A stretch of 63,552 nucleotides of DNA, filler included, from Dirinaria sp. TL-2023a (GCA_051941275.1; 2 parts of 2 records of this genome joined end to end with filler, not necessarily neighbours in it), one strand, 5' to 3'; shown: positions 28,274 through 51,798, counted from the first letter of the whole stretch. The notes: generated by a model not told the origin, from the sequence alone. Translations and numbers: made by a program.

Positions 28274-28931
28274 AGGGAACTGGTTCATCTAAGGTACAGT
28301 AGGTAATCATGTGTGGACCGTGCTCACGATTTGTTGTAACTTCATCATAATAATGTAATCATTGCATGTATTTATTATTATTGCAACACCTCCAATGCTG
28401 ACTTGTTTCTATCTATAACACTTGTTCGGCTCCTGATCTGCGCATCTATGACAGCGTAAGGAATCCGTCACTCTCTTCCCCTTGCCCAACTGAGCCAATA
28501 GCTCTATGAAAGGTGTATCAGCTGAATATAGAAAGGTACATGTAACGTGGACATGAAGATGGTAGATGCCGATCCAATCCGGGCGAGGGGAGCGAGAGAG
28601 CCCTCGAGCGTCATATAAATCCCAAAACGCATCTTGGCAGCCAAGGCGCGTCTTGGCAGATCTCTTGGAGGAAATTTGATCTGGGCATCGAGGACATCGA
28701 GCAGCATACTCTGTACACGGGAATCATGATCTGAATGGGAGGCTAGGAATTCTCCAAGTCACGTCATTAACACTCCGCGCCGGCCGGAACCTCTGACAGA
28801 GAGCTATCCTGGGCCACTTGCGACTCCAGGACACTGTGCATAGCTGAAGAAGCTTATCGCAACCCGTTCAATACGCATGCTGGACCGCGAAATAAAGGCT
28901 CCTTGCGAGCTCTGCTCAGAGGGTGGAGGGG

Positions 28932-31704
28932 ATGTCTTCGTTTTTTGGGAGCATCTTCCCCGGTGACAAAGAGCTAGGGAAGAAAGATGATGACCACAGG
29001 CCCGGAAGAAGCCCTGCGTTACCCAGAGCGTGGTCAGCGCGCAAGCAGGTATCCGGCGTGCGGAGGAGAAGGGTAACATACCTGATACTGGGGCTGCTGG
29101 CGATTGTTTTGTTCGTCAAGAACATACCTACCGATCTGGGGCCAAACAGCGCGAGGAGAGATGTCAGGGTGCCCTACCCGGACAGAAGTCTGCCTCAATC
29201 CCCCAACCAAGAGGCCCCAACCGACAAACCCCCTCGTCGGTCTCCATCGTCTGAGGCGGAAGATCACTACTATGACGGCCCGGTCAAATTCTACAAGCTT
29301 GCCGCTTCGCTGCATGCGGTGGCAATGTTAGCCGGTCGTGGTGGGAAGAATAAGAACATTCTGTTCGCGGCATCGAGCCTGAAGAGCGCCTCTGCAATCA
29401 TGCCAATGGCCTGTGAGATGGCTGCGCAGAAGCGGAACGATGTACACTTCGCTTTCATGGGCAGAGAGGAGCTGGAAATACACGAGATTCGCGAGGTGAA
29501 CGGAATCAATGAGGATGATTGCCCGGTCAATTGGCATGATGCGCGACCGGACTATTCGCGTTGGAGCTCAGACCTGCGCATGGAAGTCAGTGTCCGAGCT
29601 GGCCTGGGGCATATTAATAAGTTCGTGATGCCACAGGCGCTCATCATCGACTATGAAGGTAGAGAGGATACTTTCTTCGTCAATTCAGCTAGGATCAAGG
29701 CGCTCGACATGGGGAAATCTCTTGTCCGGCTTCCACGAGACGCTGCGACGGACATGATGTGGATCACACATTTAGACAGCGGGGCGCTTGCTGGTAATTT
29801 GTACCTGCGTGCTTGAATCGGCTATCTTGGCTAATGGGTTTCCAGCATGGCAAACAACATACATCGATCTTGTCGTTCACGCCCTTCCTCATTCTTCCGG
29901 CTCATTGCTTAGGCTCTTAAAGTCTATCGAGGCGGCCGACTATTTTGGGCATCGACGACCGCATCTAACAATCGAAGTCCCCTCCGACATTGATGGAGCT
30001 ACGGATTGGTATCTACAGAACCTGATATGGCCGCCGCTGGATTGGTCTGGAGCGCTCCACACCTCCCAAGTCACTCTTCGCCGTCGCATACCTAAAAGAA
30101 CGTTCACTGCAGCAGAAGCATCTTCCCACCTCGTGGAATCTTTCTATCCTGCACGTCCAGAAGATTCGCACATCCTCATTCTTTCCGCTCAGGCGGAGCT
30201 CTCACCGCTGTACTATCATTACGTAATGTATAATCTCCTCGAGTACAAGTACTCAAAGGGCCAACGCTCGGATAATCTCGTGGGCATCAGCCTCGAGCTG
30301 CCTCTGAATCACCTTAATGGCACAGAGCCGTTGAGCCCGCCTCACCCAAAGGGAAAGCCCGACACACCCACGCCTTTTCAATGGCAAGCTCCTAATAGCA
30401 ATGCGGCCCTCTACTTCGGGGACACGTGGATGGAATTGCACTCCTTCCTGACCAATCGCATCTCCACCATGACCTCCAAAACCCCGAAATACCAGAAAAA
30501 AATCAGCGAAACACAGCCGGCATGGGTAGAGTATCTCCTTGAGCTTATGCGCGCAAGAGGCTACACAATGCTCTACCCGAATTACGCCTCTACATCTTCC
30601 AATGCCATCGCAGTCAGCCACTCCGAGCTATACCAACCGCCAGAAGAATATCCTCAAGACCGACGAAAATCGCCATCCTCCACCGACGCTCCTCCCCCTC
30701 TTGATCCCACCGACCCATTCACCGCCGAGCCTGTGACAGAAACAATGAAGCCATCTGCTCAACCAGAGCCCGAACTCCTCACCACCACGCTCCTCGACAT
30801 CCTTCCGCAACCAGGCGATCTTCCACCCCTGTCCGCATTACCCCTCCTCTCCTACGACGGCACTCTTGCTTCGCCGTCGGCCTTAGAAGACTCAGCGTCA
30901 GCATTCACATCCACCTTCCGCCGCGAGATCGGCGGCTGCATCTACGCCAACGGCGAACCCGATCCCGAACCAGCAGTGTACACGGGCAGCGCCAACGATC
31001 TCTTCTGCAACCTCGACTCTATCACCGAAGAAGACCTCGCGGGGGAACCCGGCGACGCAAGGCTGCTCACGGGCGATCCCGACCTCGACGTCCAAGACCT
31101 ACCACCACCACCACCACCACCACAACCAATCCCAGCGCAGGCAGCACAGGCATACGCGGAGCCCTCTCCGCCCCCCGTGCCAGCCGACGAGGTACGTCAG
31201 ATGAAAAACGAATTCACAGCACACCTCCAGCGCCAGAAGGAGAAGAAGGGGCCGAAGAAGCTACCTACGAAACCCCTCAAGGGCGGCGATGAGAAAGAAG
31301 AGGAAAAGGTCTTAGTTCCTGCCGCGCAGGTGAGCGCGCTCTCGAAGGCCGGCGGCGGCGGCGAAGACGACGCAGTCTTTCCATCCATGAAAACCCCCGA
31401 GGAAGTCGAAGACGAGAAACACGTGATCCCGCACGCGGAGCGGGGGAGTGCGAGGAATGAACTTGCGTCGCATTTGAATCGGCAGCAGCAGAAGCAGAAG
31501 AAGGGAGAGGGGAAGGAGAAGAACGATGAAGGAGGAGGAGGAGGAGGAGGAGGTGGTGGTGGAGGAAGAGCGGGGCAGAATATAAAGGCTAATAAAGAAC
31601 CGGCTAAGGCTAAGGCCAAGGAAGAAGAGGAAACAGATGCGAAACGCAGCTGGATGAATGATCCCGACGACGCCGCCGCCGCGGAGAGGAAACCTGGGTG
31701 GTGA
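28932..31704 (+). CDS. type II membrane glycosyltransferase-2-like protein (conserved fungal family)
   Basis: ELGKKDDD N-terminus, TM YLILGLLAIVLFV, YYDGPVKFYKLAASL, WHDARPD, SGSLLRLLKS, ESFYP, WQAPNSNAALYFGDTWMELHSFL. Intron 29794-29845. Low-complexity poly-P/poly-G tail. Gene is solid; the function label is less certain. Confidence 0.75.
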
Positions 31705-31762: not shown

Positions 31763-31862
31763 NNNNNNNNNNNNNNNNNNNNNNNNNNNNNNNNNNNNNN
31801 NNNNNNTTAATTAATTAANNNNNNNNNNNNNNNNNNNNNNNNNNNNNNNNNNNNNNNNNNNN
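31763..31862. other. assembly gap containing synthetic TTAATTAATTAA linker
   Basis: 100 nt: N run, TTAATTAATTAA at 31807-31818 (stops in all six frames), N run. Confidence 0.95.
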
Positions 31863-32887
31863 CCCCCTTACCAATCAAAACCCATTTCTTCCCCCCATCC
31901 TCCGCCGCCGCCGCTCCTCCTCCGTCCTCCGATATCTGCGCTCGCACCACCAAAAACCACGAGTCAACATACCGAGCCTGTCCAACGCGGAACTTGACCT
32001 CCCAAACTTCTCCTCCGCTGTGCTGGCGAGAGCTATAGATTGGCTGTGAAGCTTCAATGACCCATTCCCGGACGGTAGCGGCCGCGCCTCCGGGCACGAA
32101 TTTCGGATTGCGTTTCCGCGGGCTGAAAAGCAGAGATGATATGTGAGCAGAGGGATCCGACTCCGGTGCGGGCGGCAGCACAAAGGCCGGCTTTGAAAAG
32201 GTAGATGCTGGAGAGGAGTGTGTTGGAAGCAGGAAGCGAGGGTGGGGGTTTTTCGAAGCTGATGAGAGTGCGTGGAGCGCGAAAGGAGGCGGCGGCGTTG
32301 TCGGTGGCGACGGTGAGGAGGGCAGCTGTGCAGATGATGGCGGTGTGGTGGCGGCAGAGGAAGAGATGACGATTTGTTCCCCCTCGGGCGCGGGAGGACG
32401 GAGTCGTTTCGCTGAGGTGGATGGTGGAGGAGATGAGGCCTCGTCTTCGTGAAGTTCGCTGACGCTTTTCGCGTTCACATTGAGGGGTTGAGGGTAGAGT
32501 CCCGCGCCTGCGTCGTCTTCGCCGGAGCTGGGCTCATCGATGATTTCTTTCTGCGGTGGGGCAGGTTTGGGGAGGTGCCGTCGCGCTTCGAATGGAGATG
32601 GGATATCATGTCTGTACTGGTTTGGATTGGCACTCCCCTCTCTCTCCCTGTTGGAGGAGCTGAACGTGAATCGCGGCGTCCCTGCAAGCCTCTTTGTGAT
32701 TGAGGAGACAGGCTGAGGAATGCTGTCTTGGGGCGCGTGTAGCGATGAGGAGGCTCGTTGCTCAGAAGGCCTCGTGGAGGACGGGGTAGATAGAATGAAG
32801 CGGTGGGGATTGGGGGTCTATGCTCGGTGTGAGCGGGCTTTTGCAATCAGATGGCATTGCACGGCGTACTATTGGCGGCGGCACCAT
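31863..32887 (-). CDS. conserved fungal hypothetical protein, 3' end lost in gap
   Basis: Exon 1 32870-32887 (MVPPPI), intron 32818-32869 (GTACGC..GCTCAC..TAG), then one open frame TPNPHRF..AGTPRFTF..FSPRKRNPKFVPGGAAATVREWVIE running into the N gap. Confidence 0.7.
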
Positions 32888-33257: not shown

Positions 33258-33301
33258 ATGTGAAAAAAAAAAAAAAAAAAAAAAATTTTTTTTTTTCACA
33301 T
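33258..33301. repeat. fold-back palindrome at NRPS stop codon
   Basis: ATGTG-A23-T11-CACAT, overlapping the terminal TGA (33296-33298). Confidence 0.75.
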
Positions 33302-36300
33302 GTCCTGGATAAGCAAGTCCCGCACCTTCGCGACCACATCCCTCGCCACGCTCTCATCGATCAATCTGCGGTTTCCTTCGAACGACAAGACCAGCCTCCC
33401 CTTTCCCTCCTTCACATGCGGCGTGGCATAGATCTCAGGTCGAGGTCGGGGCAGCATCGGCGCGTCGTGAACGCTGAAATCGCTTCGCTGCCCCAGAAAG
33501 CTGAATTCTTCTTCCACCGCGCGCTGTCCTCCTCCTGGGCCTTGTTGGAGTGCGGTGCGCCAACCGAAATTTGGTCCATTGTGCTAGTCGGTGCAGTCCC
33601 GGATGATCTTGTTCATACCTAATCGTTCGTGCGGCGCATCTTGTATGAATTGATCGTGCAGCGTGCTCGCCACGCTCGCCACGGTATCGCACGGTGCAAC
33701 GCTGATACGGATCGGTATCTCCGAGAGACAAGGCCCGACGACGTTTTGGAGCGGAACCGGGAGTATGGAGCGGCCGGTCACCAACCGGCCTACAATCAAG
33801 TCCTGTTCTTGGTGGTAGATGCGCGACAGGACAATGCAGCAAGCAGCGTGGAAAGCCGTCGCTAATGAGAACCCATCGGACGAGGTCGATGCTGGCATGG
33901 GCATGGTCTCTTCGAACGCAATTCGATCTTCAACAACGTAGGATTTAGAGGGTGCTGCCGATCTGTTGTTGGCACTCCAGTGCGGATAGCTGGAGTTTTG
34001 CAGTCTGCTGGTCCAGTAACTTATGCTCCTCGCCTCTTGTTGCTTATCGAAAGCAAGAACTCGTGCGAAGAGCGGTGATTCGGGAATACTTTCGGCCTTG
34101 TAAAGTCTTGAAAGGGTGTCGAACAAAAACGACAGACAGTAGCCGTCAAACAAAGCATGTGAGATCCGCAAAATTAATTTCGGCCTTCGTATGGCATGTA
34201 GTACGACCATGAAACGGATGAAAACAGAACCCAAGTTGCGTTTCTCCTTAGATCCTCGTCGCATAAGCTACTGACGAACCGGCCCATTTCCTCATTCTTG
34301 GTGTCGAATAGCTCAAACTCTGCTGTGACGTTCTCCATTTGCACTTGCAAGAAATTGTTACCTGACTCGACGAAAACGCTTTGTAGAATGTCGAAGTGGT
34401 TCACAAGCATGTCGCATGCTTGTCTCAATCTTCCGAGATCCACATCCGGAGGTAGCTCCACAATATAATGTGGCCATCTGCCGGGAGGATCTTGTAGATT
34501 GTCCTTGATCGCCTGAGTCTGAAAGTCTGATATGGGCAGAACATCTCTCACATTGCCAGTCACCGTTGGATCAAGCAAGGGTAGTACCAATTCAGTGACA
34601 AATGATGCTGTATGTGTGTTGGCTGGAAGCAACGAAAAAGGCTGGTACGGCTGTAAGACCTCTTCTCCTTCCTCTACGGTTATCCAACTCATCACTTGAG
34701 CCAGCTCACAAAGTCGCGGGTGGCGAAAGATGTCCGCTACTGATAGGGACAGCCGCTGCTGGCGTGCCGCAGCCACCAGGCGCATAGCAGCAATCGACTC
34801 TCCGCCGATGCGAAAGAAATTGGTACCAGCGCCGATGCTCGAGGGATGAATCGTTAGTATCGCTGACCATAGAGCTTGTAAATGTGCCTCCATCACAGTA
34901 TTCGGAGCCTGAAAATCTTTGCCCTGCTCATTTAAATTCATCTCCGCAAGCATCGCTGGTGTGTACGTGTTCCCAATCTCTCGCAGGTGACGTCGATTGA
35001 TTTTGTTAGTGCCAGTGAACGGCATTTCTTCCAGGGCGACATAGGCTTGAGGAAGCATATATCGTGGAAGATGTTCCGAGAGTCGATTTTCGACTCCTTT
35101 AAAAACAAGCTTCAATTGGGCCTGCAGATCATTTATCATCTCTCCCGTCGGAACAAGCTTGACAAATATCGCAATGACTGTGCTTTCAGTATTTTTGGGT
35201 ATGATCACTTCTGCTGCAATAGCCACACATAGGCTTGGGTCGTGAAGGTTGGATCGGACATGACATTCGATCTCGCTCAGCTCAATCCGCTGGCCCCGCA
35301 GCTTGATCAACCCATCTTTGCGGCCGATGAAGGTCAAAGTCCCATCGGAATTGTAGCGCAGAAGATCTCCAGTTTTGTAGACTTTGCTTGATCGTCCTTG
35401 GTAGCCTGGAGCACCATTTCGAAGCCATTCTGGCGCGTTCAAGAATGCCGCTGCAGTCCTGTCAGGGTCTCCAAGATATTCCCGTGCAAGCGTCGGCCCC
35501 TCAATTAAAAGTTCTCCAACCGCTCCGATGGGCACGAGCTTCTCCGGATGGCCAGGTCGCACAAGCCAAATTCATGCTCCAAAAGGACGTCCAATATGGT
35601 TATTGGGGGATTTGGCGTTGAGTGGATCTATCAACATCGCCCCTTGAGCGCACTCCGCGGGACCATAGATACCCAAGATATCCTCTACGTGGGTCCAGCG
35701 AGAGAACTCGACATTAAGAAGTGGTTCACCGCCTATTACTAAAGTTTTGAGATTTGGCAGAGTGGCAGGAGTCAAAGAGGCCGCCACCGAGGGCGGAAAG
35801 TGAATATAATTTGCCCGCAATCTGTTGAAGGCGCCAGCGAAATCATTCATACGTTCCCATTCTGATGGTATACACAAGCAGCCTCCACGTATCAAAGTGT
35901 TCAGTAAGTTGGACCAGGTGATATCGAAGCTGTACGAAACAAAATCGAAGACTCGCGAATCCCGTCCGACTAGCAACGCCTCCCCCTGATGTGACACAGC
36001 GGAAGAAAACGCTTCATTTGTCATCACTATTCCTTTCAGTACACCCGTAGATCCTGACGTGAAAAGAATGTATAGGACATCACTGGGAGCGAACTTGCGC
36101 TCAGGCGTGTGCAGGTTTGCTGTAGAGCCACAGGCTGTGCCTGAAAACCATCTGGCGTCGACGACAGTCACCTCGGCATTCGAAATGTTACTCGCCAGCT
36201 CGAATGTATCAGCAGATGCAAGTACGAACTTCGGTCCAACCTGTTTACAAATAGCCCGAAGTCGCTTCTGGGGTTGCTGCACATCCATGGCTACACAAGT

Positions 36301-39300
36301 CGCGCCAGCCATGATTGCACCCAGAGCAGCGACAGGTTGCCACATCGATTTTGGGAAGCATAAGGCCAGTACGTCGCCATTTCTCACCCCAATATCAATC
36401 AAATGGTTCGCCAGCTGGTCCGAGAGCTCTTTCAGACGTCTATAAGTGAGCGAACCGTCCCATGCACATATGGCTTGGGCCATTGGCTGGAGGTTTACGG
36501 CTTGAACAATCCTTTCTTGAACGCTGACCTTTACAGCACGAGGGACTTGAGCATTCCATTTGCAGAGCTCAGTCATATCTTCTGGGCTTGCTACGTCTAG
36601 TTCTCGTAGCAACACCGATTCCGACACACAAATCTGTCGTAGCACGTGTTCCATCTGGGAAGCAAGTCGTTCCGCCTGCGTGGCGTCAATGACTTTGGAG
36701 TCAAAGCTTAGCTCCAACCCCAAGTTATCGTCATGACTCAGCTGACACGTCACCATTAATGCATGAGGATTGAAGTTGCCAAGGCCACTACTGATCGATG
36801 ATGAGAGCTCGATGCAAGATTTGAAGGGACTCAAAATGTCTGTATCCGGCGGATCTTTCGGGATGGACGGAGGTTGTATGACCAGTAGAGTATTGAATCT
36901 GGTTGCTTGTTCAGTGTCTGCATTTATCCGGCGGATTTCAAGGAATTCTGTGTGCTCGTAAGGAATCATCTCAACAGATTGTTGGTGTATCTTGTCCAAA
37001 AATTTCTCAAGCCGTTCTTGGGGGTCAAACATGACCCGTATAGGAAGAGCAGCAATCAATGGAGCGATGATGCCTTCAATGCCATCGATTGGAGCCTGGC
37101 GTCCGGTGACGAGGGCTCCAAAAACCACATCATCAACAGCTGTATATTGTGCAGTCAGTATTGCCCAAGCTGCCCTGATAATTGTCGAAGCTGTCACATC
37201 TTTTTTACTGAAAGAGATGTTATCAATATCACGCCGACACACGCTGTCTGCTTTGGGCACATATCCATGATGCGGAAGAGCTGGAAAATGAACGGCCTCG
37301 ATGCCCAAGCACTGACGGCGCCAGAATTTTTCCTTGTCTTCTTTATCAACAGTCGTCACATGTTTGATAAACGTCTGGAGTGTTGCCGTGGGTGGCTTAT
37401 ATTCTCTGCAAATGCAATCTGGAGGCTGAGAATATGCCTTGGCGACCTCTTCGAACAAAAGCTGTAATGATGTACCATCATACAAAGCGTGGTGTTGCGT
37501 AAAAATGCAGGAACGCTGCTTGATATGACGTTTGTTGTCTTTTGCGGGCTCAATAAATCCAAGTCGAGTGAGGGGCTGAGCTATGGCCATGGTCTCTCGG
37601 GAAATTTTCTGGACGTACTCGTCGACATCGTGGGAACGATTGCACGCAATGGGCTCATCAACTTGAACTGTGACCAAGCCACCCTGACTGAGGATTTCCA
37701 CTATTCTACATCGTAATATAGGTGCCTTGGATCGACTCACATACTCCCAAGCTTGTTGGAGTCGATGGATATCCACATGATCGTGTAGCTCAAGGTTAAA
37801 GATGGCGATGCAATCACGTGGCGATTTTGCCGTCATCGATAGGAGTTCTTTTTGTACACCTGTACACGGGAACATGTCCTCGATCCTTGCGACATTAACT
37901 CCCAACTCTACGGCTGTGTGTCGCCTGCCAGCATCTACATCCTTAGGGCGTGGAAGTAGAGAGAATGGTTCTACCGGTGCTCCACTGGTCTCCCTGTCGA
38001 CGTCATCGACGGCCAATCCGACAGCCATATCACGCAGTCGGGGGCAGGACAAAATATGCTGCACAGTTAAGGGCGTACCTTGACTTCGTGAAAGTGATGC
38101 TAGCCTCATCGCCGAAATTGAATCACCCCCCAATCGCAAGAAACTGGTATCTGCGTTGATATATTCCCGGGAAACATTAAAAATTGATGTCCAAAGCTGT
38201 CGTAGGCGGACTTCGCGCTCTGTGGTAAGATCTGATTTGATTGATCTAGCTGCTTGGGTCGTGAGCTGCGCAACGCTCAGAGAGGCACCAATCGCCTGAA
38301 GTCGCTTTCTGTCAATTTTCTTCCCTGCAGTCAAAGGAATCTCTACAATTGACAGGTAATTGCTTGGGACCATGAATGATGGCAATCGCTGCGGCAGCTC
38401 CACGTGCAGTCGATCGGCTAGTTGTTCAAAACGCAACTGATCCTCACCGTACTCAATCTGCACGAAAACTACTAAAGCTTGTCGCCGCGTGACATTGGGA
38501 ACTATGACCTCAGCGGCTACTGCGAAGCCATCTTTTACGTTCTCTGCCATACACGATCGAACGTGATGCTCAATTTCTGAAAGCTCGATTCTCTTCCCAC
38601 GAAATTTTACCTGGGTATCTTTTCGTCCTAAGAAGAAGATCGTGCCATTTCTAGGGTCATATTTTACCAGATCTCCGGTTTTATACATTCGGCCTGGTCT
38701 TCCAGGCACGCTGCCGTCCGGGGCTCCTTGTAGCAGCCACTCAGGGTCCGTCAGAAATGATAGCGCATTCAGTCCATCTAATCCCAAGTAGCCTTGGCCT
38801 ACAAGTGGGCCCTCGAGACAAAGCTCTCCGACTGCACCTATTGGTGAAAGGTCGGAGCCGGTTTGCGGATTCACTATCCAGGTCGAGACACCCTGTCCGT
38901 TACCTATAGAGAGCTTATTGGGAAGGTCTCTACAGCTTGGTAATCTGAAATACAATGATATGGCTGAACACTCGGTTGGGCCGTACACGATAAAAGTATT
39001 CTTAGCGTGAAAGAGCCAAGGCTCAACATCTGCCTTCAATACCGCTTCTCCACCAATATAAATGCTACAAAGCGTGGGAAGCTTCGCAGGATCCAGCTGT
39101 CGCGCAGTAGCTGGGGTCAGAAATATGTCAGTGGCATGCCGGCGGTGGATACTCTCTTCCAATGCTGTGCTTCTTTCTTCATCGCTCGGAATACACAGCG
39201 TGCCGCCGTTAGTCAGTACGTGAAAAGCACTCCAATAGCTCCCGTCGAACGCATAAGACGAATAGTCGTAAACGCGAGAACTACTGCTCAGCGCCAGGAG

Positions 39301-42300
39301 GTGACGTTGATGTGCTACTGCACTACTGAAGTTGCGATGTTGTATCATACAACCTTTTGGGTTTCCCGTGCTTCCAGAGGTGAAGATGACATACAGAAGG
39401 TCCGTTGATGCAACTGTCGGCAGCCTTTGATGATATGGGAAGCCTGTCCCACTCTTCCAATCACGTACAGCATCCATGCCCGACCCTATGATCAAGGTCT
39501 GAATGAGAAATTCAGCTGCAAATTGAGCGTTCGCGACAGAGGTCAAAATCAACTGAGGATGAACTTGTGCCAGCATCGCTTTGAGACGGATAAGTGGTAG
39601 CGTGACGTCAACGAGCCATACAGCAGCGCCAGCTTTCACCACTGCTAGGAACGTGATCGGCATCCACTTTGACTTCTCGAAAAACAAGGGGACAATTGTG
39701 CCCCGCTCGACCCCAAGGTCAACTAAATAGCATGCAACATGAGAGGAAAGCCCATCCAAACGATCATATGTCAGATCGCCATCCCACGCTGAGACCGCAA
39801 TTGCATCAGGCTGCTCCCGTGCTACCTCAGCAATGATCTCATGCATGCAGCGTTCGTAAGTCGCATGGACTTTGGAATTCCACTTCCAACATTGATTGAG
39901 ATCGAAATATGTCGTAGCGCTGATCTCAGACACGCTTATTTTATCGACAATTTGCTCAGAACAAAGCCGTCGGAAGATTCGCTCAAACTGACGTGCCATG
40001 TAATGCAATGTCGCATGGTCTAAAATCCGAGAGTCGAAGCTGAATTGCAGGTCTAGATTGTCCTCTCCCATGGTGCACACCAACATGAGCGCATACACAT
40101 TGAAATTGTTATATCGGTCGCTTTGACCTGTAGTTAACCGTGAAGAAGCATACAGGAAACTGTCGCCCATACCCACCTCTGGTGGCTGCACAACTAAGAC
40201 GCTCTGAAATTGGCACGCCTGTGAAGCTTCCTCGCTCATTCTTGCAATTCTTGACAATCCGGTCTGCTCGTACGGGATCATCTCCGTCGCCTGATCCTGC
40301 AGGCCCCGCAATAGAGAGTAACAGTCTTCCTGGGCGTCAATCTTCACTCGGATTGGCACAGCACAGATAATAGGGCCCGCTATTCGTTCTATGCCAGTTA
40401 CGGGTGCTTTGCGACCAATGTTGATAGTGCCGAACACCACATCTCGAATGCTCGTATACTCCGAACACAAGATTGCCCATGCCGCGCGCATCACTGTTGA
40501 TGGGGTAAAATCATCCACTCGCCAGGCTACATTCAATATCTTGTGCGTTGCAGAAGAGTCGGGCTTTGGTTGAAACGTCGTAGAAGGAATTGAGGGGAAC
40601 TGAGGTGCCTCCAAGGATTCGAACTGTCGTGTCCAAAAAACTGTCTCCGCATCCTGGTCCTGGTTTGATATGTATTTGACAAAGCTTTGGAATAGCCAAA
40701 GGGGAAGAGACGGTCGATCATTATACAAGCTTTCCAGAGTCTCGAGAATGAGAGCGTTAGTGACACCATCGTATATGGAATGGTGCATCGTCAAGGCAAA
40801 TATAAATCTCCGATCTTGATTATTCGAGAAACTGAAGTCCGGAAACAATCCGCACCGCATGAGTGGCGAGCCTAATGCTATAGGCAACTTTTGGTCTTTC
40901 TCTACATAGTCCTCTAGGTCTTTTGCTGCTAGCCATGATGTCTTGTGCTTGACGACTGCTTGAACGAGTCCTTGATTCGGTAGATCAACGATCCTTGTCC
41001 GTAAGATAGGCGTTCGAGCAACTACCCTTTCCCAAGTACGCCTGAAATGATCGACGTTGACCGAGGGGGACAATTCCAGAACTTGACGATTGATGTATGC
41101 GGCCTGGTGTCTCTCACTCAATGCTAAAAGACCCTCTTGTAGCGGCGTGCAGGGAAATAAGTCTTGGACGTCAAGGGGACTAATACTGCATGATGAGGCT
41201 ACAAGCTGGCACTGATACTTGAAATTCGCACTGTCGTCCAATAGCTCAAAGGGATGAAAGTCTTCCCGACTAGGTTTATCTTGAACCTTCAATTTCTTAG
41301 CCATCTGAGAGAATCTCGGATTTTGAAACACATCAGACGCGGTAATTTCGAGGCCCTGCTGCCTGGCTAGTCCCACTAAGCGCATCGCTGTGATGGAGTC
41401 ACCTCTCTGGAGAAAGCTATCATTTGCAGAGATACAGTCGGCGTCTATCTGAAGTACTGCAGACCAGATCTCACGGAGTGTTCTCTCTGCAATGCCCTCT
41501 GGCTCTTGTCGCGACCCGTAGCTCCGTTTTGAAGCCTTGAATGCGGCCCCAACTTCTTGAAGTCGAGCTCTATTCCGCTTGCCTGAGGGAGTGAGCGGTA
41601 AAGAGTCAATCGGGATGTAAAGCCTAGGGACTGAGTGCCAGGGTAGCAGAAGGCTTAATTTCTCACCGAGATTGATCGTCAGCTTCTCGAAATCAAGAGG
41701 GGACATAGGGTGTTCTTGAGAAAAGCAAAGGAAGGCAGCGAGAGTCTGGTCTTTACTGCTTTCGGGTATTACTATATCCACCATCACCTTGATGTCTCTC
41801 TCATGTGACAAGCACTGGTGTATGTGGTGCTCGATCGTTTCTGGAGAGATTAAATTGCCACGTATCTTAAACAAGTCGTCCTTCCTCTGTAGAATCTGCA
41901 TGTCGCCATTGGCCTTATATCTAGCCAGATCTCCGGTAAGATATATTACACTGCTTTCATGAGAGGCAGGTGAGGTTAGTGCTTGACAGAGAAAGGCAGG
42001 GTTCTTGAGGAAGGACTTCGCGGTCCTGTCGAGATCTCCAAGGTAACACTCAGCACATGCGGGTCCTTGGACCGCGATTTCACCAATGCCGCCCAAAGCA
42101 ACGAGGTTGTCGGGATTCCTGGGGTGGACAAGCCAGCAACGAGACGATGCACTCGAATTGGACCGGCCAATCACACCGTCAGACCATGTTTCATCTACAT
42201 CAGTGAAGCATGCAGTGGCTGCTTCACATGGACCATACCAATTGAAAACTCGACATCTGTCCCTCCATCGAGAGACGTTATCCTCGGTAAGCTTTTCACC

Positions 42301-45300
42301 ACATAGTCCGAGTGTTTTAACGCAGGATACGTCGGCTGGTTGTAACAGTTTTGCGGTCGATACAGTCACGATAAGGAAATTGCAGTGGAAGCGTCGAATG
42401 GTCTGCGCGAATGCAGTGAGTCTTTCTGACTCGGAAGGAATGCACAGACATCCGCCGTAAGCTAAAGTGGCCATGCTCTCGATCGTACAGGCATCAAAAT
42501 TGTACGCCATGAATTGAAAGACGCGACTGCGTTCTTTGAGCAGCGCAGATCTTCCAAGTGCCATCACAGCCGCTGCCAAGGTCTTATGGCTCCACAATAT
42601 TCTCTTAGGCTTGCCCGTGGTCCCAGATGAGAGTAGTAGCACTGCTCTATCGGTCAAACGTAAGATAGGCAATTGTCGCCATGCCATCCCTGAAACCTTT
42701 TCGCTGGATAGGAGATCCTGGATCGTCAAAGATCGAATTCCACAGTGCGCGATTAGATTCGCATGAAACTTATCCAGACTGAGCGCGATAGGAATATCAA
42801 GAGAATTGAGAACGGAACCAGCATGTTGTTCGATAATCTGTGCTGCTTGTAAGAAGCATATGCCTCCAGCCTTTAGAATCGCAAGCTGCACGATCGGCGT
42901 CCAGCATGACTTGTCCAGGCAGAGCAAAACGATTGCACCTTGTCCACAGCCTAATTCGATCAGGCTACGACCAAGGAGGGTTGATAGATCTTCCACTTGC
43001 TGGAACGTAAATTCACCATCGTGAGCATCAACGGCTGAAGCACTAGGTCGCTCATTTGCCATGTCAGCAATCAAACTTGGCAGACATGTAGTAGGTTCCT
43101 CGGGGTAGACCACATTCTGGCTCCGAAGAAAGCCAATGTCCGCACTGCTTGCCGTCTGGACGGCGTTGACCTTGATTTTTGCAACATTTTCCATGCACAT
43201 CTGTCGTAAAATCTCCCCAAACTGATTTGCAATTCGCTTGGCCACAATGCGTTCGGTGACACGATCGTCAAAACTCAGCGTTAAAGATACACCGGAGTTG
43301 GAAAGTTCGCAGATGAGCATCATGGCGTAAGTGTTGAAAGGATCGGTGCCTCTTGTCCCGATGTTGCTTGCGAATCTTTGCGACCGGGCTTTAAAGAGAA
43401 AGCTATCTTTATTGAGACTTTTCCCCTCCGCAGTGGGCTGGACCACCAAGAGTATCTGAAACAATGACTTTGTGATGCTTCCTATGGCGCTTTGGATCGC
43501 CCGCAACCCAACTTGCTCGAATGGTGTCATAGCCAGGGCTTGACGCTGCACTCGGGCTTGTAACTCACCTACACTTTCGTCGTCATCCTCATCCAGCGCA
43601 ATTGCAATTGGAACGGTTGAGATTGTAGGACCGCCACAATACATTATGCCTTTCATATCCGCCTGTCGACCACTTACGGTCGCGCCAAATATGATATGAT
43701 CAGAGGAGGTATGAGCAGCTGTCAATATGACCCAAGCGCACCGTATCAGAGTCGAAGGCGTCATATCATTACGCGGCCAATCTAACGAGATGAAGTGCCG
43801 CAACTCTGCATTCGCCGCCGGCTCATATCGTGGAGACGGTATCGTGGGAAACTGAACAGGCTCGATTTTGGACAATTCTCGATGCCAAAAAGCGGCTGTT
43901 TTCTCTTGGTCGAAATTTGTGGTATGCTTTATGAAGTTCTGGAAAGGTGTTATGCGCGTAGCCGTTCTGCCCACATATTGTGCCTCAATATCATCCAAAA
44001 TCATCTGGAGGATTTTGCCGTCATAGAGACAATGATGAATGGTAAGAATGAAATGTTGAGAGATGACAGCAGCACGGCAGAGTGGTGTTGCTAGGCCCAT
44101 ACAAAAAGACTCATCTTCGCGTATATAATCGTCAATGTCGGTGCCAGACTGCCAGTGCAAATGGGTTAGCACGGCTTGCACCAATCCTTGCCCTGGAATA
44201 TCCACTATCCGCGTTCTCAAGATCGCGAATTTGTCAACAGTCCTTTGCCATGCTTACTTCAAAAGTTTATGATCGATGTATGATTGAAGCTGCAAGACAC
44301 TACGAGATACATATTGCCCCGAACGCCTTTCTGTCAATGCAAGCAGTCCTTCTTGAAGCGCTGTACACGGATAAATGTCAACAACTTGACAAGGTGGGAG
44401 TTGACAGAGTCGAGCCGCATGCCGCTGTGCTTCGCTTTGCTTAATGCCAGGCCGAAGAAGTGAAAAAGGGGCAGGTGCTGTCTCAGATGTTGAATGCATG
44501 TCTTGTTTGATCACCTTTGCCATCAGACTAAGTTGGGGAAATGCAAAGATGTCTGCAACGGTCAAAGAAAAGCCCTGATCATGGGCAAGCGCAACGAGCT
44601 GCATTGCACCTATCGAGTCTGCCCCAAGCTGGAGGAAGCTATCCCCGGAGAAGATCGCGTCAGAGTCAATGCCAATAACCTCTGCCCAGAGGCACTGCAG
44701 TAACCTTTCCATCTGAGTGGAAGGGGGTCTCGACTTATGACGAGAGGGCTGCATCGCTGCCAATTGTGCGTGTGTGAAAGAGCCTCCAATTCGGCGAAGA
44801 CGTCGTCTGTCAGTCTTGCCGGTGTGGGTCAAGGGAATACTTGCGACAGGGACATACAATTTTGGGATCAGATATGGGGGAAGGCTTTTGGATAGGGTTT
44901 GCTCAAGATCATTGACGGGCAAATTCTGCTTGACAGTCTCGTAGACTTCTTCCACAAGTTTTCCAGTCACACTCGCTGGCTTCACAAAAAGAGCCAATAT
45001 TTCGGACGCGCTCTCTGCTAGAGAAAAGATCTCTGCAATTACGGTGGCTTCGAATTTCCCAGACATAGCCAGCTGCACGCTGGATTCTATATCCCCCAGA
45101 TCTACTCTGCGTCCGTGGAGTTTTCTTTCGGAGTCCTTACTACGACCAAGTATGATCAGCTGGCCGTTTTCACCGTATTTCGCAAGATCCCCGGTCTTAT
45201 AAAGCCGCGTATTCCGCCCTTGGATGTTGTCATAGCCTCGCTGAAGCCATGATGGAGATGAAAATGCTTGTTCGTTAACATTTCGAGCGTTTCTGCCCAC

Positions 45301-48300
45301 GTAGCCAGCGGCAAGAATCGGTCCTTCTATATAGAGCTCAGCAACAGCGCCGACCGGAGCGAGTTTGTTAGCATGAATGGAGTCAACGAGCCAACACAGA
45401 GCATGCGATCCGTGACCAATGAGACCTGCTTTCCAGGTATCTTCCCGGACGAGGTAAGAAGTCGCCACTGGAGCTTCTGCGGGCCCGTACCAGTTGTGGA
45501 AGAACTTGACCTTGTTCAACCATTTCCTCGCAGTACTCTCCCGCAACATTTCACCTGCGCAGACCAGTGTTTCTAACGATGGCGTGTCAAATGGCGCAAG
45601 AGCTTCGGCCACCGACGGTGTAAGGCACATCCAGTTGGCGCGCGTACCGTTGATGGCTGTCGCGAGACGATTCAAACGGTCTGACTCGGTCGAAATGCAT
45701 AGGTAGCCTCCAATCGATAGCGTCGCACATGTCTCCAAATTACTCACGTCGTACTCATAATCGGAAAACTGGAAAATTCGACTCTCGCAAGTGAGATTGA
45801 AGTTGGTGACCATGGCTTGGGTGTTGGTAGATATGGTACCATGACTCCACAATATAGCCTTCGGAGTGCCTGTCGACCCCGACATAAAGAGTATGATAGC
45901 ACCATCGGAGGGATCATTCATGCCAGAGAAAGTAGGGTACGGAAATTCAACCTGATCTAGTGATGAGACCAGCTCATTTATGTGAATAACGGCTACCAGG
46001 CCGTAGAATGCAGATGCTTCCGGTTCCAAAGACGTAATTGCCAGTTTTGGCTGCAAGATTGCATTAATTTCTTGAGCGTTTTGAGCGGACGACACAGCAG
46101 ACAATGGTAGCACAGTTGCCCCTGTTCTCATGGTCGCGATCATTGAGATCGCCATCCACGCAGACCTCTCGAAAGACAACACAACCACGGTCCCCATGCC
46201 AACACCTTTCTGCCGAAGTAGATGAGCGAGGCCGCATGAGAGCGCCTTCAATTGTCCATAGGACGCATTCTTGTCCCAAGCGCTGATGGCCGGACTATCT
46301 GGTCTTCTTATCGCATGTTCATCTAGTGAATCAACGATAGGCTTTACAAACATCTCGGGCACGCATTTGTTCCATTGCCACATGCTGCTAAGATCATTTT
46401 GACTGGCTAATGATAATTCATGTAGGTACAACGTTCCGCAATCTTTGTGGCAGATCTGCTGCAAGATATGCTCGAGCTGCCAGGCAAATCGACGTATATG
46501 TTGCTCACTGATAGCCGCAGGATCGTAGTTGATGTCGAGAGAAAGCCCTTCGCCCTCCACTTGGCATATCACCGACATGGCGTAAGGGTTGAAGACTCCA
46601 ACGTCTTCAACGCCCACTTCTAGTTCCCCTCCACCAGAGATCGAGACAGGTCGTGCAAAAAGGTCAGATCTCGAGCTGTGGGAGGGATCATACTTCGGCT
46701 GGACTGTGAGTAGGAGTTGAAATTCACTGGCATCACGGAGAAATGTACTGATACGGCGAATGTTTTGCAGGCCAAATTGTTCATGTTCTGCAATATTCAC
46801 GGCCTGGTTCTGTATTTGTTCTCTGAATTGATCAACGTGATTATTCCAGTCTAATTCAATCCGCACAGGGGTTGTTGCGATGGTAGGCCCTACCATAAGG
46901 TCAATATCGTGAAGAGATGCTTGTCTGCCACTCGTTACCGCGCCAAAAATAACATTCGTCGAATTTGTGTATGAAGCCAGCAGAATTGCGATTGCGGTAC
47001 GTATCAGGTTCGAGGCGGTGAATCGCGTGCGTGACCATTGCAAATCTGGCATTTGACATGAAAAATTCTTCTTCGATTCTCTAACTCCACGGTTGGGAAG
47101 GGGAAATATCGATGCTGCTGGACCAGCCAACTGATTTTGCCAAAAGTCCACAGCATCGGCATTCTCTCGGGTTAGGATATGCTTGACAAATGGTGTGAAT
47201 GGGGCCAAGTGAAGATCTGCAGGCCGGCATTCATGATATACTTGCTCCATCGCATCTAAAATTAATTTTATGGACCAGCCGTCGAAAATAGCATGATGTA
47301 TGTCGAGAAAGAAAAGCCAGTGCCTATGCTTGATGAGACCTGCTCGACACAAGGGCGTTCCCATGGTGATCGGGTCATCGTCTTCAAGGTAGGACTTGAC
47401 ATCTAAATAAACCCTCCAAGGAACTAGGCGCTTCAAGACCACTTGGACAAATCCGACTCTAGATAATGTTGTCGGGATCGAAGGATGGGTGTTTGATGAA
47501 CGACCTTATTCCAGGCGTCCTGAAATTTAATTTGGTCTACATGTTGAGGAAGTTGAAAGACCTTTCTGGCCACATAATCGCCGGCCGTCTTGGCCGTGAT
47601 CGCGAGCATTCCTTCCTGAAGTGGCGTACAGGGATACATATCTTCTATATCAGAGACATCAACTTCGCAGAGATCGGCCGCTGCTCGACACAGACGCCCA
47701 TCATTGCGTTCACTTGCTAATAAGCTGAACGGCGCGATGATGGTGTCATGGGTCGGGGTCTCGGACATTCTTGCCACCGTAGCCAGATCGATGAGCCTGG
47801 GATTTCTGAAGATGTCGGCGACAGTGATTAAAATGTTCTCTTTGCGCGCCGAAGCCACCATCTGAATGGCTGTCACGGAATCGCCACCTGTTTGAAACAG
47901 ATTGTCTGCGACGCTTATCAATGTAGGTTCTAGATTCAAAACACGAGCCCAGATCTCGCGCAAATGGCGTTCCAATTCGTTAGTAGGCTCCAAGTAGACC
48001 TGCAAAGGGACCAGGATCGACTGTAGCTTGATTGCTTCTGCCCAAGATAATCCGCTGCCCCAGTCCCTAAGTTGCCTACGGTCAGCCTTGCCTGTGGATC
48101 CGATAGGTATCCTCTCAATCGGAACGACCAGCCCTGGGATCATAAACTGCGGTAGTATCTGTGACAACTTCTCGGTGAGACCCTTTACATGTCCTTGAAT
48201 GGCTTCTAAATCCTGGCCACAGGTTTGGACAAACAGTGTTAAACAAGGTTCTTTACTGCCCATCGGTCGTATTACATCCACTATGATCGGCAAGTCCTGC

Positions 48301-49685
48301 ACTATGCAAGTACGGACATGATGTTCAATGTCACCCAATTCAATCCTTTGGCCTCTTATCTTCAACTGTGTCTCGTCATTTCGCCCGACAAACACCAGTC
48401 TCCCTCCCTTGACATATCTCGCCAAGTCGCCGGTCTTGTATAGCCGGCCCGATCTATCCGTCAGTGTACTTTCACCAGACCTTAGCCAAGGGGGGTCTTT
48501 TACGAAAGTTGACGCTGTCATAATCGGATCTTTGAAATAGCCTTGTCCAACCAGGGGGCCTTCAAGGTACAATTCCCCTACGGCACCCAAGTCGGCGAGC
48601 TTGGTACTGTCATGAGGATCGACTAGCCAGGTGCAGCAGCCAATTCCCACGCCGATGTTGGGCCGATCGTTTTCATTCCCAGGCTTGAGGACCGAGAAGG
48701 CAGATTTGAAGGTGCATTCCGTTGGGCCATAGGTGTTAAGAAGTCTGACATGTCCAGCCCATCGGACTATATTCTCTCTGAACGGCATTTCACCACTCAA
48801 GAGTACGGTTTCCAGGCTCTCAGGGATCGGCTCTATCGTGCGCAGAATCGTGGGCGTGACATTGACCAGCGTAGCTTTGAAACTCAAGATAGCTGCGGAC
48901 ACATCATCCAGCATTTGCCCTTGCTCAGCGATGCAGAGACACCCTCCGGCGCCTGCGGTATGCAGAAAGTTGCTCCAAGCAACATCGAAGGAGTACGGTG
49001 CAAAATCGAACACGCGCGATTGGCTACTAAACCCAAGGCTTTGGCCTTGATGATGAATAGCGCTTCTGACATTGGCATGGCTCATACAGGCACCTTTCGG
49101 TGTACCTGTCGTGCCGGATGTGAAAGATATATAGGCGATGTCTGCCGGCGATATGATGGGAAGCTGATGGTCAAGATATTGATGCATATCATCGTTAGTA
49201 GCAACGAGCACACTGTCATCCACTAGCATGATGGGAATCCTAGCCAGCATTGATGCCCTGGCATGGCTGGTGCGGGACGAGAGCATGATTTTGGGCTCAA
49301 TCTGTCGTATGATCGATTGTAATCTGGCATCTGGGTGTGTGGTGTCGAGCGCAACACAGGCGTTCCTTGACATGATTACGCCCAGCATAGCGATTGGCGT
49401 TCATTTTGTCTTTTCGAAAAGTATAGGAATAACCCGCCCAGGATGAGGTCCTTTCAAGGAGACTCGTCTGGCCAGATTGCTGGCTAATGAGTAGAATTGG
49501 GAATACGTGAAGGAGCCATCCCAGGCATCTACGGCGAGGGCAGCTGCCTGCTTTAGCGCGTGTAAAGAGATCAGATCGTGGACGCAGCCGTAGATGGACT
49601 CTGGAACACGGGATCTCTGTCTCCATATCTCCGCATCATCTTGTTCGCTTGGTGGGAGATGGTTTCCTGTCTGTTGGACGTCCAT
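33296..49685 (-). pseudogene. five-module nonribosomal peptide synthetase (A-T-C)x4-A-T-CT, disrupted
   Basis: Five A domains (FTSGTTGTPKG, YGPTEC, GELYLEGP, YKTGDL variants), five carrier domains (GGDS, GADS, RGDS, GGDS, GGES), four C domains (HHAIFDG, HHCLYDG, HHSIYDG, HHALYDG), terminal CT (SHALFDG). In-frame stops at 49401-49403, 44254-44256, 35572-35574, 33584-33586; frameshifts near 47467-47471 and 34241-34246. None is explained by an intron. Confidence 0.9.
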
Positions 49686-50688
49686 TCTTGGGCAAGGGGC
49701 ACGTAGCACTTCCAAGTGATGGCCCCAATGGTCATGAAAGGATGCAACTGGAATTTCCCTGACGATTGCACGATTGATGACCGCAGTCTCCGGTGAAGAC
49801 TAAGGTAAGGTATTCGCACGATTCATTATGCATGTGCATGTGAAGTGAGGGGATACCTTCTACGCCCAGAGCGGTGAAAAGGCTGCATAGAATTCCGTAC
49901 CAGCCTCAAACAGAGATGTCTTAAGGTAAGTAAAGTCAGGTACCTACTCCGTACCTAAGGTACCTAGTGTGGAAATGCCGTGTCTGCCGTGCCTGCCGTG
50001 CCTACCGCGCCGATTACTCTACCCAGCAAATGCGCGCCAAAGGCCATCCTTACGACATCAATCTAGCTAAGGTATGTGCGACAATCCAGAAGGCCAGACC
50101 TACCTTACTACCCTTAGCATGACGTCTCTCGCTCCTCTACGACTGTTCTTGTCCAGGGCTGCCGCTCTCTGGCCGACTTTGTTGGTGTATTGGTTCTCGT
50201 CGACGCCATAGGTATATTCTCATCACCGTGACTAGTGCGGTATTTGTCGGTGAATTTTCCCTGATGGTCACCCTTGGAGAAGCGGCCAAAGCAGCATGGT
50301 CTTAGAGGGAGCCTCGCAGAAGGAGAGCTATGGACGGTCTCTAAAGCACAAGCACTGTCCGGATACTTTGTCTGCGATGTTCATCGTGACCATACTGCCC
50401 TACATATTCGAGGGTCGCGTCCAAGCGTCCAAGTTGGCGCCACTCTGCGTCACTGCGGAGAGACCACACAGTACAGTGATCTAATGCAGGTTCTAAATTC
50501 AGCACATGACTAGCCAAAATGGAAATGAAGGGTCGTCAAAAGATTCACGCAACGGTGCCTGTGATGTCCCTCCAATAGCCAAGGAGTAAACCATTCATGG
50601 AAATCCCTCTCCAAGCGATTGCGATCGGGCCCCACTTCATATTTTCTGCATGAATTTCATCAATTGAAATTCAAGCAAGATCCAAAAG
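49686..50688. promoter_or_regulatory. divergent promoter region shared by NRPS and dioxygenase
   Basis: 1 kb between head-to-head starts; tandem TGCCGTG(T/C)C repeats at ~49976-50010 and dense TAAGGTA/TACCT motifs. Confidence 0.55.
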
Positions 50689-51798
50689 ATGACCGCTAAC
50701 GCTGTAAAGCAGGCCATCCATAAAATAGACGATATAGATGTTCGTGGGCGAGCAGTTCAAGACGTCTTTCCAAGGTTGATCGACATTTTAAAGATCTCTG
50801 GAGGGTGCACTGTTCGCAATTTCATCCCTCAGGAGACCGTCAACCAATTGAATGAGGACTTTGCTCCTTACTTCGATCAAGCTCAACAATTGAAAAGTGA
50901 GTAAAAGCGTTGGTGACTAAAAAGCTAGCCGTGTCGTGCAGGCTGATGCTATCGTCTTGCTGCGACTCAACAGGCAACTTCTGGGCGAAAGAAACCAGAC
51001 GCATCACTGGCTGCATGGGGAAATCAGAACCCTACGCCCTCGAGATCGTGGGGAACGAGTTGTGGCAGAAAGTCGGCCGCCATTTCCTCACGAGTACTCT
51101 GCAGTGGTGGGTAAGTCGATCGAGTGCCAATTTATTTTCCCTTTCTATTGCCCTGCCATGATGCCATCCCTCCTTTACAATGCTGACTTTCACTCTCTCG
51201 AATGAACCAGATTGGGGATAGGCAAGAACACAGCACCAGTGACCCCCAACTCAACAACACCTCTGTTTTCAGGATCCGGCCTGGAGCCACCGCGCAAGCC
51301 CTTCATCGGGACGACTGTATCTGCCATGTCCACCACTCTGCCGCGACAACGCATTACCTCGGCCGGGACTATGGCATTGGACTTTTTGTGGCCGGCACCC
51401 CATCTACCTCCCATAATGGCGCCACGCGCTTCATCCCTGGATCCCACCTCTGGGACTATGCCGTTCCACCTCGCGAAGAAGATGCTGTATATGCTGAGCT
51501 CAGGCCTGGAGATGCATTCATGATGCTCGCAGGCTGCTACCACGCAGGCTCAGCGAACTTGACCTCCGACCAGGATCGCCAGCTCTACACGACCTTCACG
51601 GGCAGAGGCTGGTGCCGCCAGGAAGAAAACCAGTACTTGGCACATAGTGATCTTGAGTGCGTAAGACGATTACCTGAGAAACTGCAGAGCTTTATGGGGT
51701 GGAACTTGAGTCTACCTTTCATGGGGTGGGTGGGGCTCGAGAATCCGATTCGGGCGTTGAAGGATGAGTCCAAGGGGCCAAGCGTGCAATATTTTTAG
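50689..51798 (+). CDS. Fe(II)/2-oxoglutarate dioxygenase, phytanoyl-CoA hydroxylase (PhyH) family
   Basis: AQALHRDD (HxD), NGATRFIPGSHLW, AELRPGDAFMMLAGCYHAGSAN (distal His), RQEENQYL. Introns 50897-50973 and 51111-51210 give an intact frame. Confidence 0.9.

Follow-up and report, generated by a model that had tools for sequence, protein, structure and literature searches.

The closest described counterpart to the nonribosomal peptide synthetase (NRPS) gene considered here, which lies head-to-head with the gene of an Fe(II)/2-oxoglutarate (2OG) dioxygenase in a 63,552-nucleotide stretch of DNA from Dirinaria sp. TL-2023a (GCA_051941275.1; the whole stretch, two parts of two records of this genome joined end to end with filler, is referred to as the window in what follows), is mbjA (PEXP_055140) of Penicillium expansum. 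The report on this gene (PMC13036780; J Nat Prod 2026) describes how its deletion abolishes MBJ-0110, 3-hydroxy-MBJ-0110 and Val-MBJ-0110, PEXP_055140 being the only P. expansum NRPS predicted to have five adenylation (A) domains in a screen with antiSMASH and PARAS. As set out there, the compounds are five-residue cyclic depsipeptides of pipecolate, proline, aspartate, (hydroxy)isoleucine or valine, and gamma-hydroxypipecolate, the hydroxyl of the last forming the lactone; all residues are L and MbjA is without an epimerization (E) domain. The same text proposes that PEXP_055150, a predicted 2OG dioxygenase encoded beside mbjA, hydroxylates Pip or Ile, cites fungal L-pipecolate 4-hydroxylation as an analogy for the hydroxypipecolate of MBJ-0110 and DtxS1 as an NRPS with a terminal condensation-like (CT) domain, and places mbj homologues in 19 species from the Eurotiomycetes, Trichoderma and Lasiodiplodia, with horizontal transfer considered; the word 'lichen' does not occur in its text. 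Judged by its sequence, the window NRPS is a member of this MbjA-type five-module family, and we consider it probable, if well short of certain, that the locus is the remnant of a two-gene cassette widespread in lichen-forming Lecanoromycetes, consisting of an MbjA-type NRPS and a divergently transcribed PhyH dioxygenase, whose presumably hydroxylated product has been lost here.

The NRPS gene, organized as A-T-C x4 + A-T-CT (T, thiolation; C, condensation), occupies positions 33296..49685 on the minus strand, from an ATG at 49685-49683 to a terminal TGA at 33298-33296, and this 16.4-kb frame, now in pieces, reads through to ∼5460 codons when an X is placed at each break. Pfam returns AMP-binding, PP-binding and Condensation-type domains, five of each, in the order A-T-C-A-T-C-A-T-C-A-T-C-A-T-C, with matches in five of the seven pieces scanned (the two without a match are the first 132 residues and one out-of-frame open reading frame, ORF). 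The condensation-type motifs are, in order, HHAIFDG, HHCLYDG, HHSIYDG, HHALYDG and a terminal SHALFDG, and because these His motifs are only 1084-1097 residues apart there is no space for an E or a methyltransferase (MT) domain; neither of these, nor a thioesterase (TE) domain, is seen from Pfam and the motif positions. The gene is without introns, since the intact orthologue P0244 aligns with the window in two segments only (residues 2-724 with 49643-47472 and 728-5132 with 47466-34243) and the C-terminal ∼300 residues of a second orthologous gene model, P0126 (residues 4204-4511), cover the 3' end at 34267-33311. ORF translation, Pfam and motifs thus agree with an earlier sequence-only reading of the window, which had described an intronless 16.4-kb NRPS with five A-T pairs, four HHxxxDG motifs and a terminal SHALFDG and had seen no room for epimerase or methyltransferase domains. 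In ending in a condensation-like domain with S in place of the first H and no TE, the protein resembles fungal NRPSs with CT domains of the SHxxxDG type, of which TqaA is an example.

The likeness to MbjA extends over the full length of the protein. P0291, the P. expansum homologue in our comparison, was identified as PEXP_055140 by its length and N-terminus (5403 residues in both, the first 120 agreeing with the corresponding row of the supplement), and its sequence has five A motifs and, besides SHAQFDG, four motifs of the HHxxxDG type. Over 5358 aligned positions the window NRPS shows 46.4% identity to this protein (46% over 99% of a 4443-residue read-through query), with the same domain order, no E or MT domain, and the four HHxxxDG motifs at matching positions with the same spacing. 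Ten-residue A-domain codes, taken via motif anchors on the alignment, agree between window and MbjA at 9, 9, 3, 8 and 6 of 10 positions for modules 1-5, and those of seven other lichen orthologues agree with MbjA at 9, 8-9, 3-5, 9 and 6-8; all eight lichen sequences share one code for module 1, DVSNLSTFKK, while that of module 3 varies among them. In both systems, moreover, a gene for a dioxygenase of the same predicted class (Fe/2OG) adjoins the NRPS gene, by the published account of the mbj locus. The two differ in that the window copy is a pseudogene, in the diverged codes of modules 3 and 5, in the terminal motif, which is SHAQFDG in MbjA, the lichen orthologues and all other homologues examined as opposed to SHALFDG in the window, and in the further conserved genes that the mbj cluster of Penicillium is described as holding, where the window shows the dioxygenase only. 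The sequence-only reading had been unable to match the predicted product to a known compound; a full-length, collinear homologue of the synthetase of MBJ-0110 now provides that match at the level of the family.

Along the minus strand the modules are arranged as follows, with approximate boundaries. Module 1 (A1-T1, 47700..49685) has its P-loop, SGTTGTPK, at 49095-49118, YGPTE at 48717-48731 and the carrier Ser in GGDSVTAI at 47865-47888. It is followed by C1-A2-T2 (44450..47699), with HHAIFDG at 47278-47298, a P-loop at 45859-45882, YGPAE at 45475-45489, GADSIGAM at 44602-44625 and the code DVLCVAWVAK, and by C2-A3-T3 (41230..44449), with HHCLYDG at 44017-44037, a P-loop at 42604-42627, YGPCE at 42223-42237, GDSITAM at 41383-41403 and the code DAIIGCWTAK. 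C3-A4-T4 (37950..41229) contains HHSIYDG (40765-40785), a P-loop (39355-39378), YGPTE (38971-38985) and GGDSISAM (38107-38130) and has the code DGWFYGVAIK. The corresponding elements of C4-A5-T5 (34650..37949) are HHALYDG (37474-37494), the P-loop SGSTGVLK (36034-36057), YGPAE (35653-35667), the A10 motif (34993-35016), GGESIAAM (34783-34806) and the code DISHVGIQGK, and the terminal CT domain (33299..34649) has SHALFDG at 34142-34162.

That the window NRPS is a pseudogene is clear from six lesions, four premature stops and two frameshifts, which leave no uninterrupted frame across the gene. In order to evaluate each of them the window was read through with one X per break and aligned to 18 intact lichen orthologues. 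An in-frame TGA in A1 (49401..49403) stands where all 18 orthologues have W, and a frameshift in C1 (47467..47474) directly after ILRSR, with a lone base at ∼47471 between the two frames, falls at a column that holds I in 17 of 18 and V in 1 of 18, with no gap. The in-frame TAA in C2 (44254..44256) replaces R (11/18) or another sense residue (7/18), and the in-frame TGA in A5 (35572..35574) replaces R (17/18) or C (1/18). Both remaining lesions break the CT domain, in contrast to the CT domains of other fungal NRPSs: a frameshift in a short A-run (AGAAAC) within 34241..34245, at ∼34241-34243, where the orthologues have a K/E/R/P codon (K in 13/18), and an in-frame TAG at 33584..33586, where each of the 17 orthologues that reach the column has W. 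Because the orthologues hold a sense residue without a gap at every lesion column none of the lesions is an intron, and because four nonsense mutations and two frameshifts inactivate the NRPS this genome can make no product. The count of six lesions had been given before and is borne out; the accompanying suggestion that the gene could be repaired is moot, since at least 18 intact orthologues of 5354-5497 residues exist. A single C:G-to-T:A transition separates three of the four premature stops from codon types found in the orthologues (TGG->TGA, CGA->TGA and TGG->TAG) and the TAA of C2 can be reached by transitions alone; four stops are too few to show a bias.

A public gene model, P0124 (4874 residues, from a metagenome-assembled genome (MAG) of Dirinaria sp. 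TL-2023a), matches the window at 34177-49388. It begins past the stop in A1, splices round the next three lesions and ends at the first stop in the shifted frame behind the frameshift in CT; as its exons equal the window translation the same lesions are present in that record, which may share the window's data. Because the model splices round the lesions, a pseudogene appears in public annotation as an intact 4874-residue protein, and NRPS gene counts in lichen MAGs may include dead genes of this kind.

The inactivation looks recent. Where six matched species are all invariant, the window departs from them at 354 of 2482 positions (14.3%) in the NRPS and at 22 of 191 (11.5%) in the dioxygenase, and because the resulting ratio of private changes, 1.24, falls within the 0.93-4.17 spanned by the other species, the extra divergence is a property of the lineage and not of decay specific to the NRPS. 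Private changes amount to 167/1838 (9.1%) at sites invariant in the 18 orthologues and, in a comparison with 25 homologues, to 41/1044 (3.9%), as compared with 61/1064 (5.7%) for MbjA itself. Core motifs are altered in T2 (GADS, where 25 of 25 homologues compared have GGDS), in the P-loop of A5 (Pro to Leu) and in CT (SHAQFDG to SHALFDG), a number of changes that is not exceptional by this measure. We considered long neutral decay of the NRPS and found it unsupported by the six-species comparison. The unmatched private-change rates, which look high, fall within the range of other lone lineages; by rough reasoning, neutral decay giving the divergence seen would leave tens of stops instead of six. 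A RIP-like hypermutation was also rejected as the cause, the (CC+GG)/(TC+GA) ratio of 0.75 in the NRPS, whose GC content is 0.498, being ordinary next to the 0.62-0.99 of neighboring genes and unlike the 0.30 of an AT-rich block at 58-63.5 kb.

Intact relatives of the NRPS are common in lichens. At least 18 lichen orthologues are 57-64% identical to the window over at least 99% of the read-through query. Five of them come from Letrouitia transgressa, Ikaeria aurantiellina, Teloschistes exilis, T. flavicans and Polycauliona, and a cluster look-up added Heterodermia speciosa and Usnea florida, so that the family is present in no fewer than seven named lichen genomes, spanning three orders, and on many further contigs. 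A truncated gene model from Physcia stellaris, the P0126 used above, belongs to the same orthologue group. It is named 'aurofusarin cluster transcription factor aurR2' at its source, which, for a protein of 4514 residues that lacks module 1 and shares its cluster with a 5467-residue member, looks like an annotation error. Farther afield, five-module homologues of ∼5300-5500 residues and 45-50% identity occur in Penicillium, Aspergillus, Talaromyces, Trichoderma, Pyricularia, Apiospora, Xylogone and others, and with the limit at 43-50% the five-module homologues also include the leotiomycete Bisporella and the sordariomycetes Seiridium, Coniochaeta, Gnomoniopsis, Clonostachys and Cladobotryum. 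The range of the MbjA family is therefore wider than the 19 species published, with homologues at 45-64% identity in Lecanoromycetes, Leotiomycetes and many Sordariomycetes. In a FastTree tree of 27 NRPS sequences the lichen proteins form one clade in which the window is sister to the rest on a branch of 0.434. One of the homologous gene models, P0317 from Aspergillus filifer, is annotated, in its precomputed Pfam matches, with a pyrroline-5-carboxylate (P5C) reductase dimerization domain, which hints weakly that pipecolate may be supplied from nearby.

The partner gene, at 50689..51798 on the plus strand, encodes a PhyH-type Fe(II)/2OG dioxygenase of 310 codons in an intact frame of three exons (50689-50896, 50974-51110 and 51211-51798, with a TAG stop at 51796-51798) separated by introns of the form GTGAGT..CAG and GTAAGT..CAG. 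Exon 3 matches Pfam PhyH (PF05721) with E 7.8e-16 and 59.4 bits against a cutoff of 22, and once spliced the frame aligns collinearly with full-length orthologues (P0004 and related), the split codon yielding the Ser that they have. When the protein is aligned with SwnH1, SwnH2, SptF and TlxJ, its HRD (the HxD), its distal H (CYHAGS) and the Arg within DQDRQLY each fall on their counterparts; in such enzymes the HxD...H residues are assigned to iron binding and the Arg to 2OG binding. A Polycauliona gene model of the dioxygenase, P0005, has an 18-residue insert exactly at the first intron of the window, which suggests an intron retained in annotation, and with it an intron position that would be conserved. 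The two start codons are separated by a region of 1003 bp (49686..50688) in which no ORF has a Pfam match and which is presumably a shared promoter. The head-to-head arrangement with a PhyH-type dioxygenase, as proposed by the sequence-only reading, is thus confirmed by the Pfam match, the exon structure and the distance between the start codons.

As to the function of the dioxygenase, the protein atlas labels it 'PhyH family' only, and its best solved relatives are NvfE (PDB 9vmf), SwnH1 (9osa) and SwnH2 (9otb), with E values of 2e-62, 2e-37 and 9e-29 for the orthologue P0004 and of 4e-39, 8e-31 and 3e-19 for exon 3 of the window. FtmOx1 and AsqJ, the PhyH-fold enzymes to which it had been likened earlier, are indeed relatives but more distant ones, with E values of 1e-9 to 1e-11 for exon 3. 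NvfE acts on a meroterpenoid endoperoxide, and SwnH1 and SwnH2 on pipecolate-derived indolizidines; to our knowledge none of the three works with an NRPS. The FoPip4H family of L-pipecolate trans-4-hydroxylases, Fe/2OG enzymes of filamentous fungi ascribed to work by Hibi et al. from 2016 (AEM), reportedly hydroxylates free L-pipecolate at C4. This reaction is the one needed for the hydroxypipecolate of MBJ-0110.

The pair recurs in other lichens. Among the best 120 of 976 matches of the dioxygenase, T. flavicans, Polycauliona and Ikaeria supply the closest (74-77% identity with exon 3), and intact NRPS and dioxygenase genes are co-located in six named lichen genomes from the Teloschistales, Caliciales and Lecanorales. 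In each case the two genes are on contigs of the same size, with locus tags (NRPS/dioxygenase) 006904/006905 in T. flavicans, 005078/005077 in Polycauliona, 003085/003083 in Ikaeria, 001859/001861 in T. exilis and 008002/008003 in Heterodermia speciosa, and consecutive accessions KAM0798199/KAM0798198 in Usnea florida. Nine more NRPS and dioxygenase matches pair up on contigs of equal size (40922, 40338, 26397, 46163, 88771, 835339, 27997, 25706 and 114786), which suggests that both genes are on one contig there as well. The idea of a cluster, for which the lack of co-occurrence elsewhere would have been damaging, is therefore not refuted on this count. Across seven taxa the pairwise identities of NRPS and dioxygenase are correlated (r = 0.91 for the 21 pairs, or 0.89 when the window is left out), and the two genes depart from taxonomy together: Usnea (Lecanorales) and Heterodermia (Caliciales) are 80% identical in the NRPS and 88% in the dioxygenase, as compared with 64-68% and 76-79% among genera of the Teloschistaceae, and the window (Caliciaceae) is the most distant in both genes and does not group with the Physciaceae. 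This shared conflict could reflect a rate shift, a long-branch artifact or transfer of the pair. Literature searches on lichen NRPSs, on cyclic or pipecolate peptides and on MBJ-0110 returned no title or abstract opening describing the pair in lichens; a search on T. virens protein id 52861 returned nothing, and a term search of a review on P. rubens NRPSs was likewise negative.

By analogy with MbjA the NRPS of intact relatives would load five L-amino acids without epimerization. Collinearity of the modules points to (hydroxy)pipecolate for module 1, Asp for module 2 and pipecolate for module 4; module 3 would take a residue specific to lichens and module 5 probably an aliphatic one, and the terminal CT would release the chain through ring closure. 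The dioxygenase most likely adds a hydroxyl, either to free pipecolate, which would then serve as the substrate of module 1 and as the lactone nucleophile as in MBJ-0110, or to another residue. An oxidized five-residue ring, as the sequence-only reading had it, remains plausible in this light; the head-to-tail cyclization implied there is less so, since the MbjA analogy makes it more likely that the ring is a depsipeptide closed as a lactone via the side chain of hydroxypipecolate.

A number of observations weigh against our preferred reading of the locus as the remnant of a widespread two-gene cassette, and several of them can be turned into alternatives. The lesions are read from the assembled sequence, the nearest named protein belongs to a metagenome-assembled genome, so that the assembly too has the look of one, and one of the frameshifts sits in a short A-run; the NRPS could then be intact in the organism and the lesions errors of assembly or sequencing. 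We regard this as very improbable, as four of the six are base substitutions that create stops, not the usual type of assembler error, and the structure of the P0124 gene model carries the same lesions, though possibly from the same data. A weightier objection concerns the partner. The functional link between dioxygenase and NRPS rests on adjacency and co-divergence, with pairs elsewhere known from locus tags, accessions and contigs, and shared ancestry can by itself give r = 0.91, related genomes sharing synteny. The dioxygenase could thus be an unrelated neighbor that belongs to a broadly conserved PhyH subfamily of fungi, serves a separate role and lies beside the NRPS by inherited synteny. 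It has 976 homologues, many at 50-63% identity and from several classes of Pezizomycotina, and two non-lichen fungi with matches to both genes, Xylariales sp. PMI_506 and Xylogone sp. PMI_703, have the dioxygenase and NRPS homologues that were listed on contigs of different size. Among 80 metagenome loci with members of the wider family at 35-62% identity to the dioxygenase, none had an NRPS-like sequence within 10 kb; of the 18 loci that reach 46% identity, ∼11 extend for 10 kb to one side or both, and none of the 80 is an orthologue at 67% identity or more; a metagenome scan with the orthologue P0166, derived from JGI, gave 18 pattern matches, none of them a relative. Further, no dioxygenase partner was seen for Letrouitia transgressa (753-kb contig) or Physcia stellaris (501-kb contig) among the best 120 of 976 matches and 15 of 25 members of the largest cluster, and in the window the dioxygenase is intact while the NRPS is dead. 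This last point carries little weight either way: at 6 lesions per 16.4 kb the chance that a 0.93-kb frame stays open is ∼0.7, so the open frame says nothing about retained function. Set against the unrelated neighbor are the adjacency in six named genomes of three orders and on nine size-matched contigs, the head-to-head arrangement with 1 kb between the start codons, the co-variation of the pairwise identities, and the dioxygenase neighbor and enzymatically hydroxylated product described for MbjA. On balance we find this alternative unlikely, if not markedly so.

The nature of the product is open to a different doubt. No Penicillium with an MbjA homologue appears among the best 120 of the 976 dioxygenase matches (47-77% identity), so the lichen and Penicillium dioxygenases may differ in subfamily, and because modules 3 and 5 depart from MbjA in their codes the product may differ substantially from MBJ-0110; all of the codes, moreover, come from motif anchors and not from PARAS or NRPSpredictor. 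It is possible, though on the unlikely side, that the product is a head-to-tail cyclic pentapeptide of other composition whose finished ring is tailored by the dioxygenase, the likeness to MbjA being architectural only. In keeping with this the overall identity is 46% and modules 3 and 5 match at just 3 and 6 of 10 code positions; fungal CT domains usually give amide macrocycles, and NvfE, SwnH1, SwnH2, AsqJ and SptF take assembled scaffolds, as opposed to free amino acids, as substrates. Agreement with MbjA is close, however, in modules 1, 2 and 4 (9, 9 and 8 of 10 code positions), with the code of module 1 invariant in the lichen orthologues compared, SHAQFDG is common to the lichen orthologues and MbjA, and domain order and spacing are equal throughout, all of which speak against this alternative. 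A bolder version of the cassette, in which the pair is a mobile or co-evolving unit for a hydroxypipecolate depsipeptide conserved across lichen-forming Lecanoromycetes, is in our view quite unlikely. The shared conflict with taxonomy would be compatible with the cassette having moved as a whole from one lichen fungus to another, or with rates that shifted in concert, and with its loss from the window's lineage; if this version were true the cassette would be the first widely shared nonribosomal peptide pathway of lichen fungi.

What appears to be new in our preferred reading, the remnant of a widespread NRPS-dioxygenase cassette, is an MbjA family with a PhyH partner conserved across lichen-forming fungi, a partner that may differ from the one in Penicillium. 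Lichen fungi are known for polyketides, and few lichen NRPS genes have been tied to a product. The link to MbjA supplies a product prediction (hydroxypipecolate at position 1, Asp at position 2, pipecolate at position 4 and lactone closure) together with a candidate hydroxylase. The window itself is, by contrast, ordinary, containing a biosynthetic gene that seems to have died recently.

The surroundings of the pair consist of housekeeping or unassigned genes, namely those of IPK, a WSC-domain protein, VPS11, MLH1 and SPT6, plus ORFs without a Pfam match. No transporter, regulator (transcription factor) or tailoring family was found among the 26 of 59 window ORFs of at least 130 residues that were scanned, and none of these families was found near the pair either, where 57 of 116 ORFs of at least 55 residues were scanned and ORFs nested in larger scanned ones were omitted. 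The description of a minimal two-gene cluster with no visible transporter or regulator is consequently a fair one for the window. Directly 3' of the NRPS are frames at 28896-31704 on the plus strand (306 + 642 residues) and at 31807-32817 on the minus strand (336 residues) that have no Pfam match and that nothing ties to the NRPS-dioxygenase pair. Finally, an AT-rich block at 58000-63552 (GC 0.34-0.40) has a (CC+GG)/(TC+GA) ratio of 0.30, as compared with 0.62-0.99 in the genes of the window.

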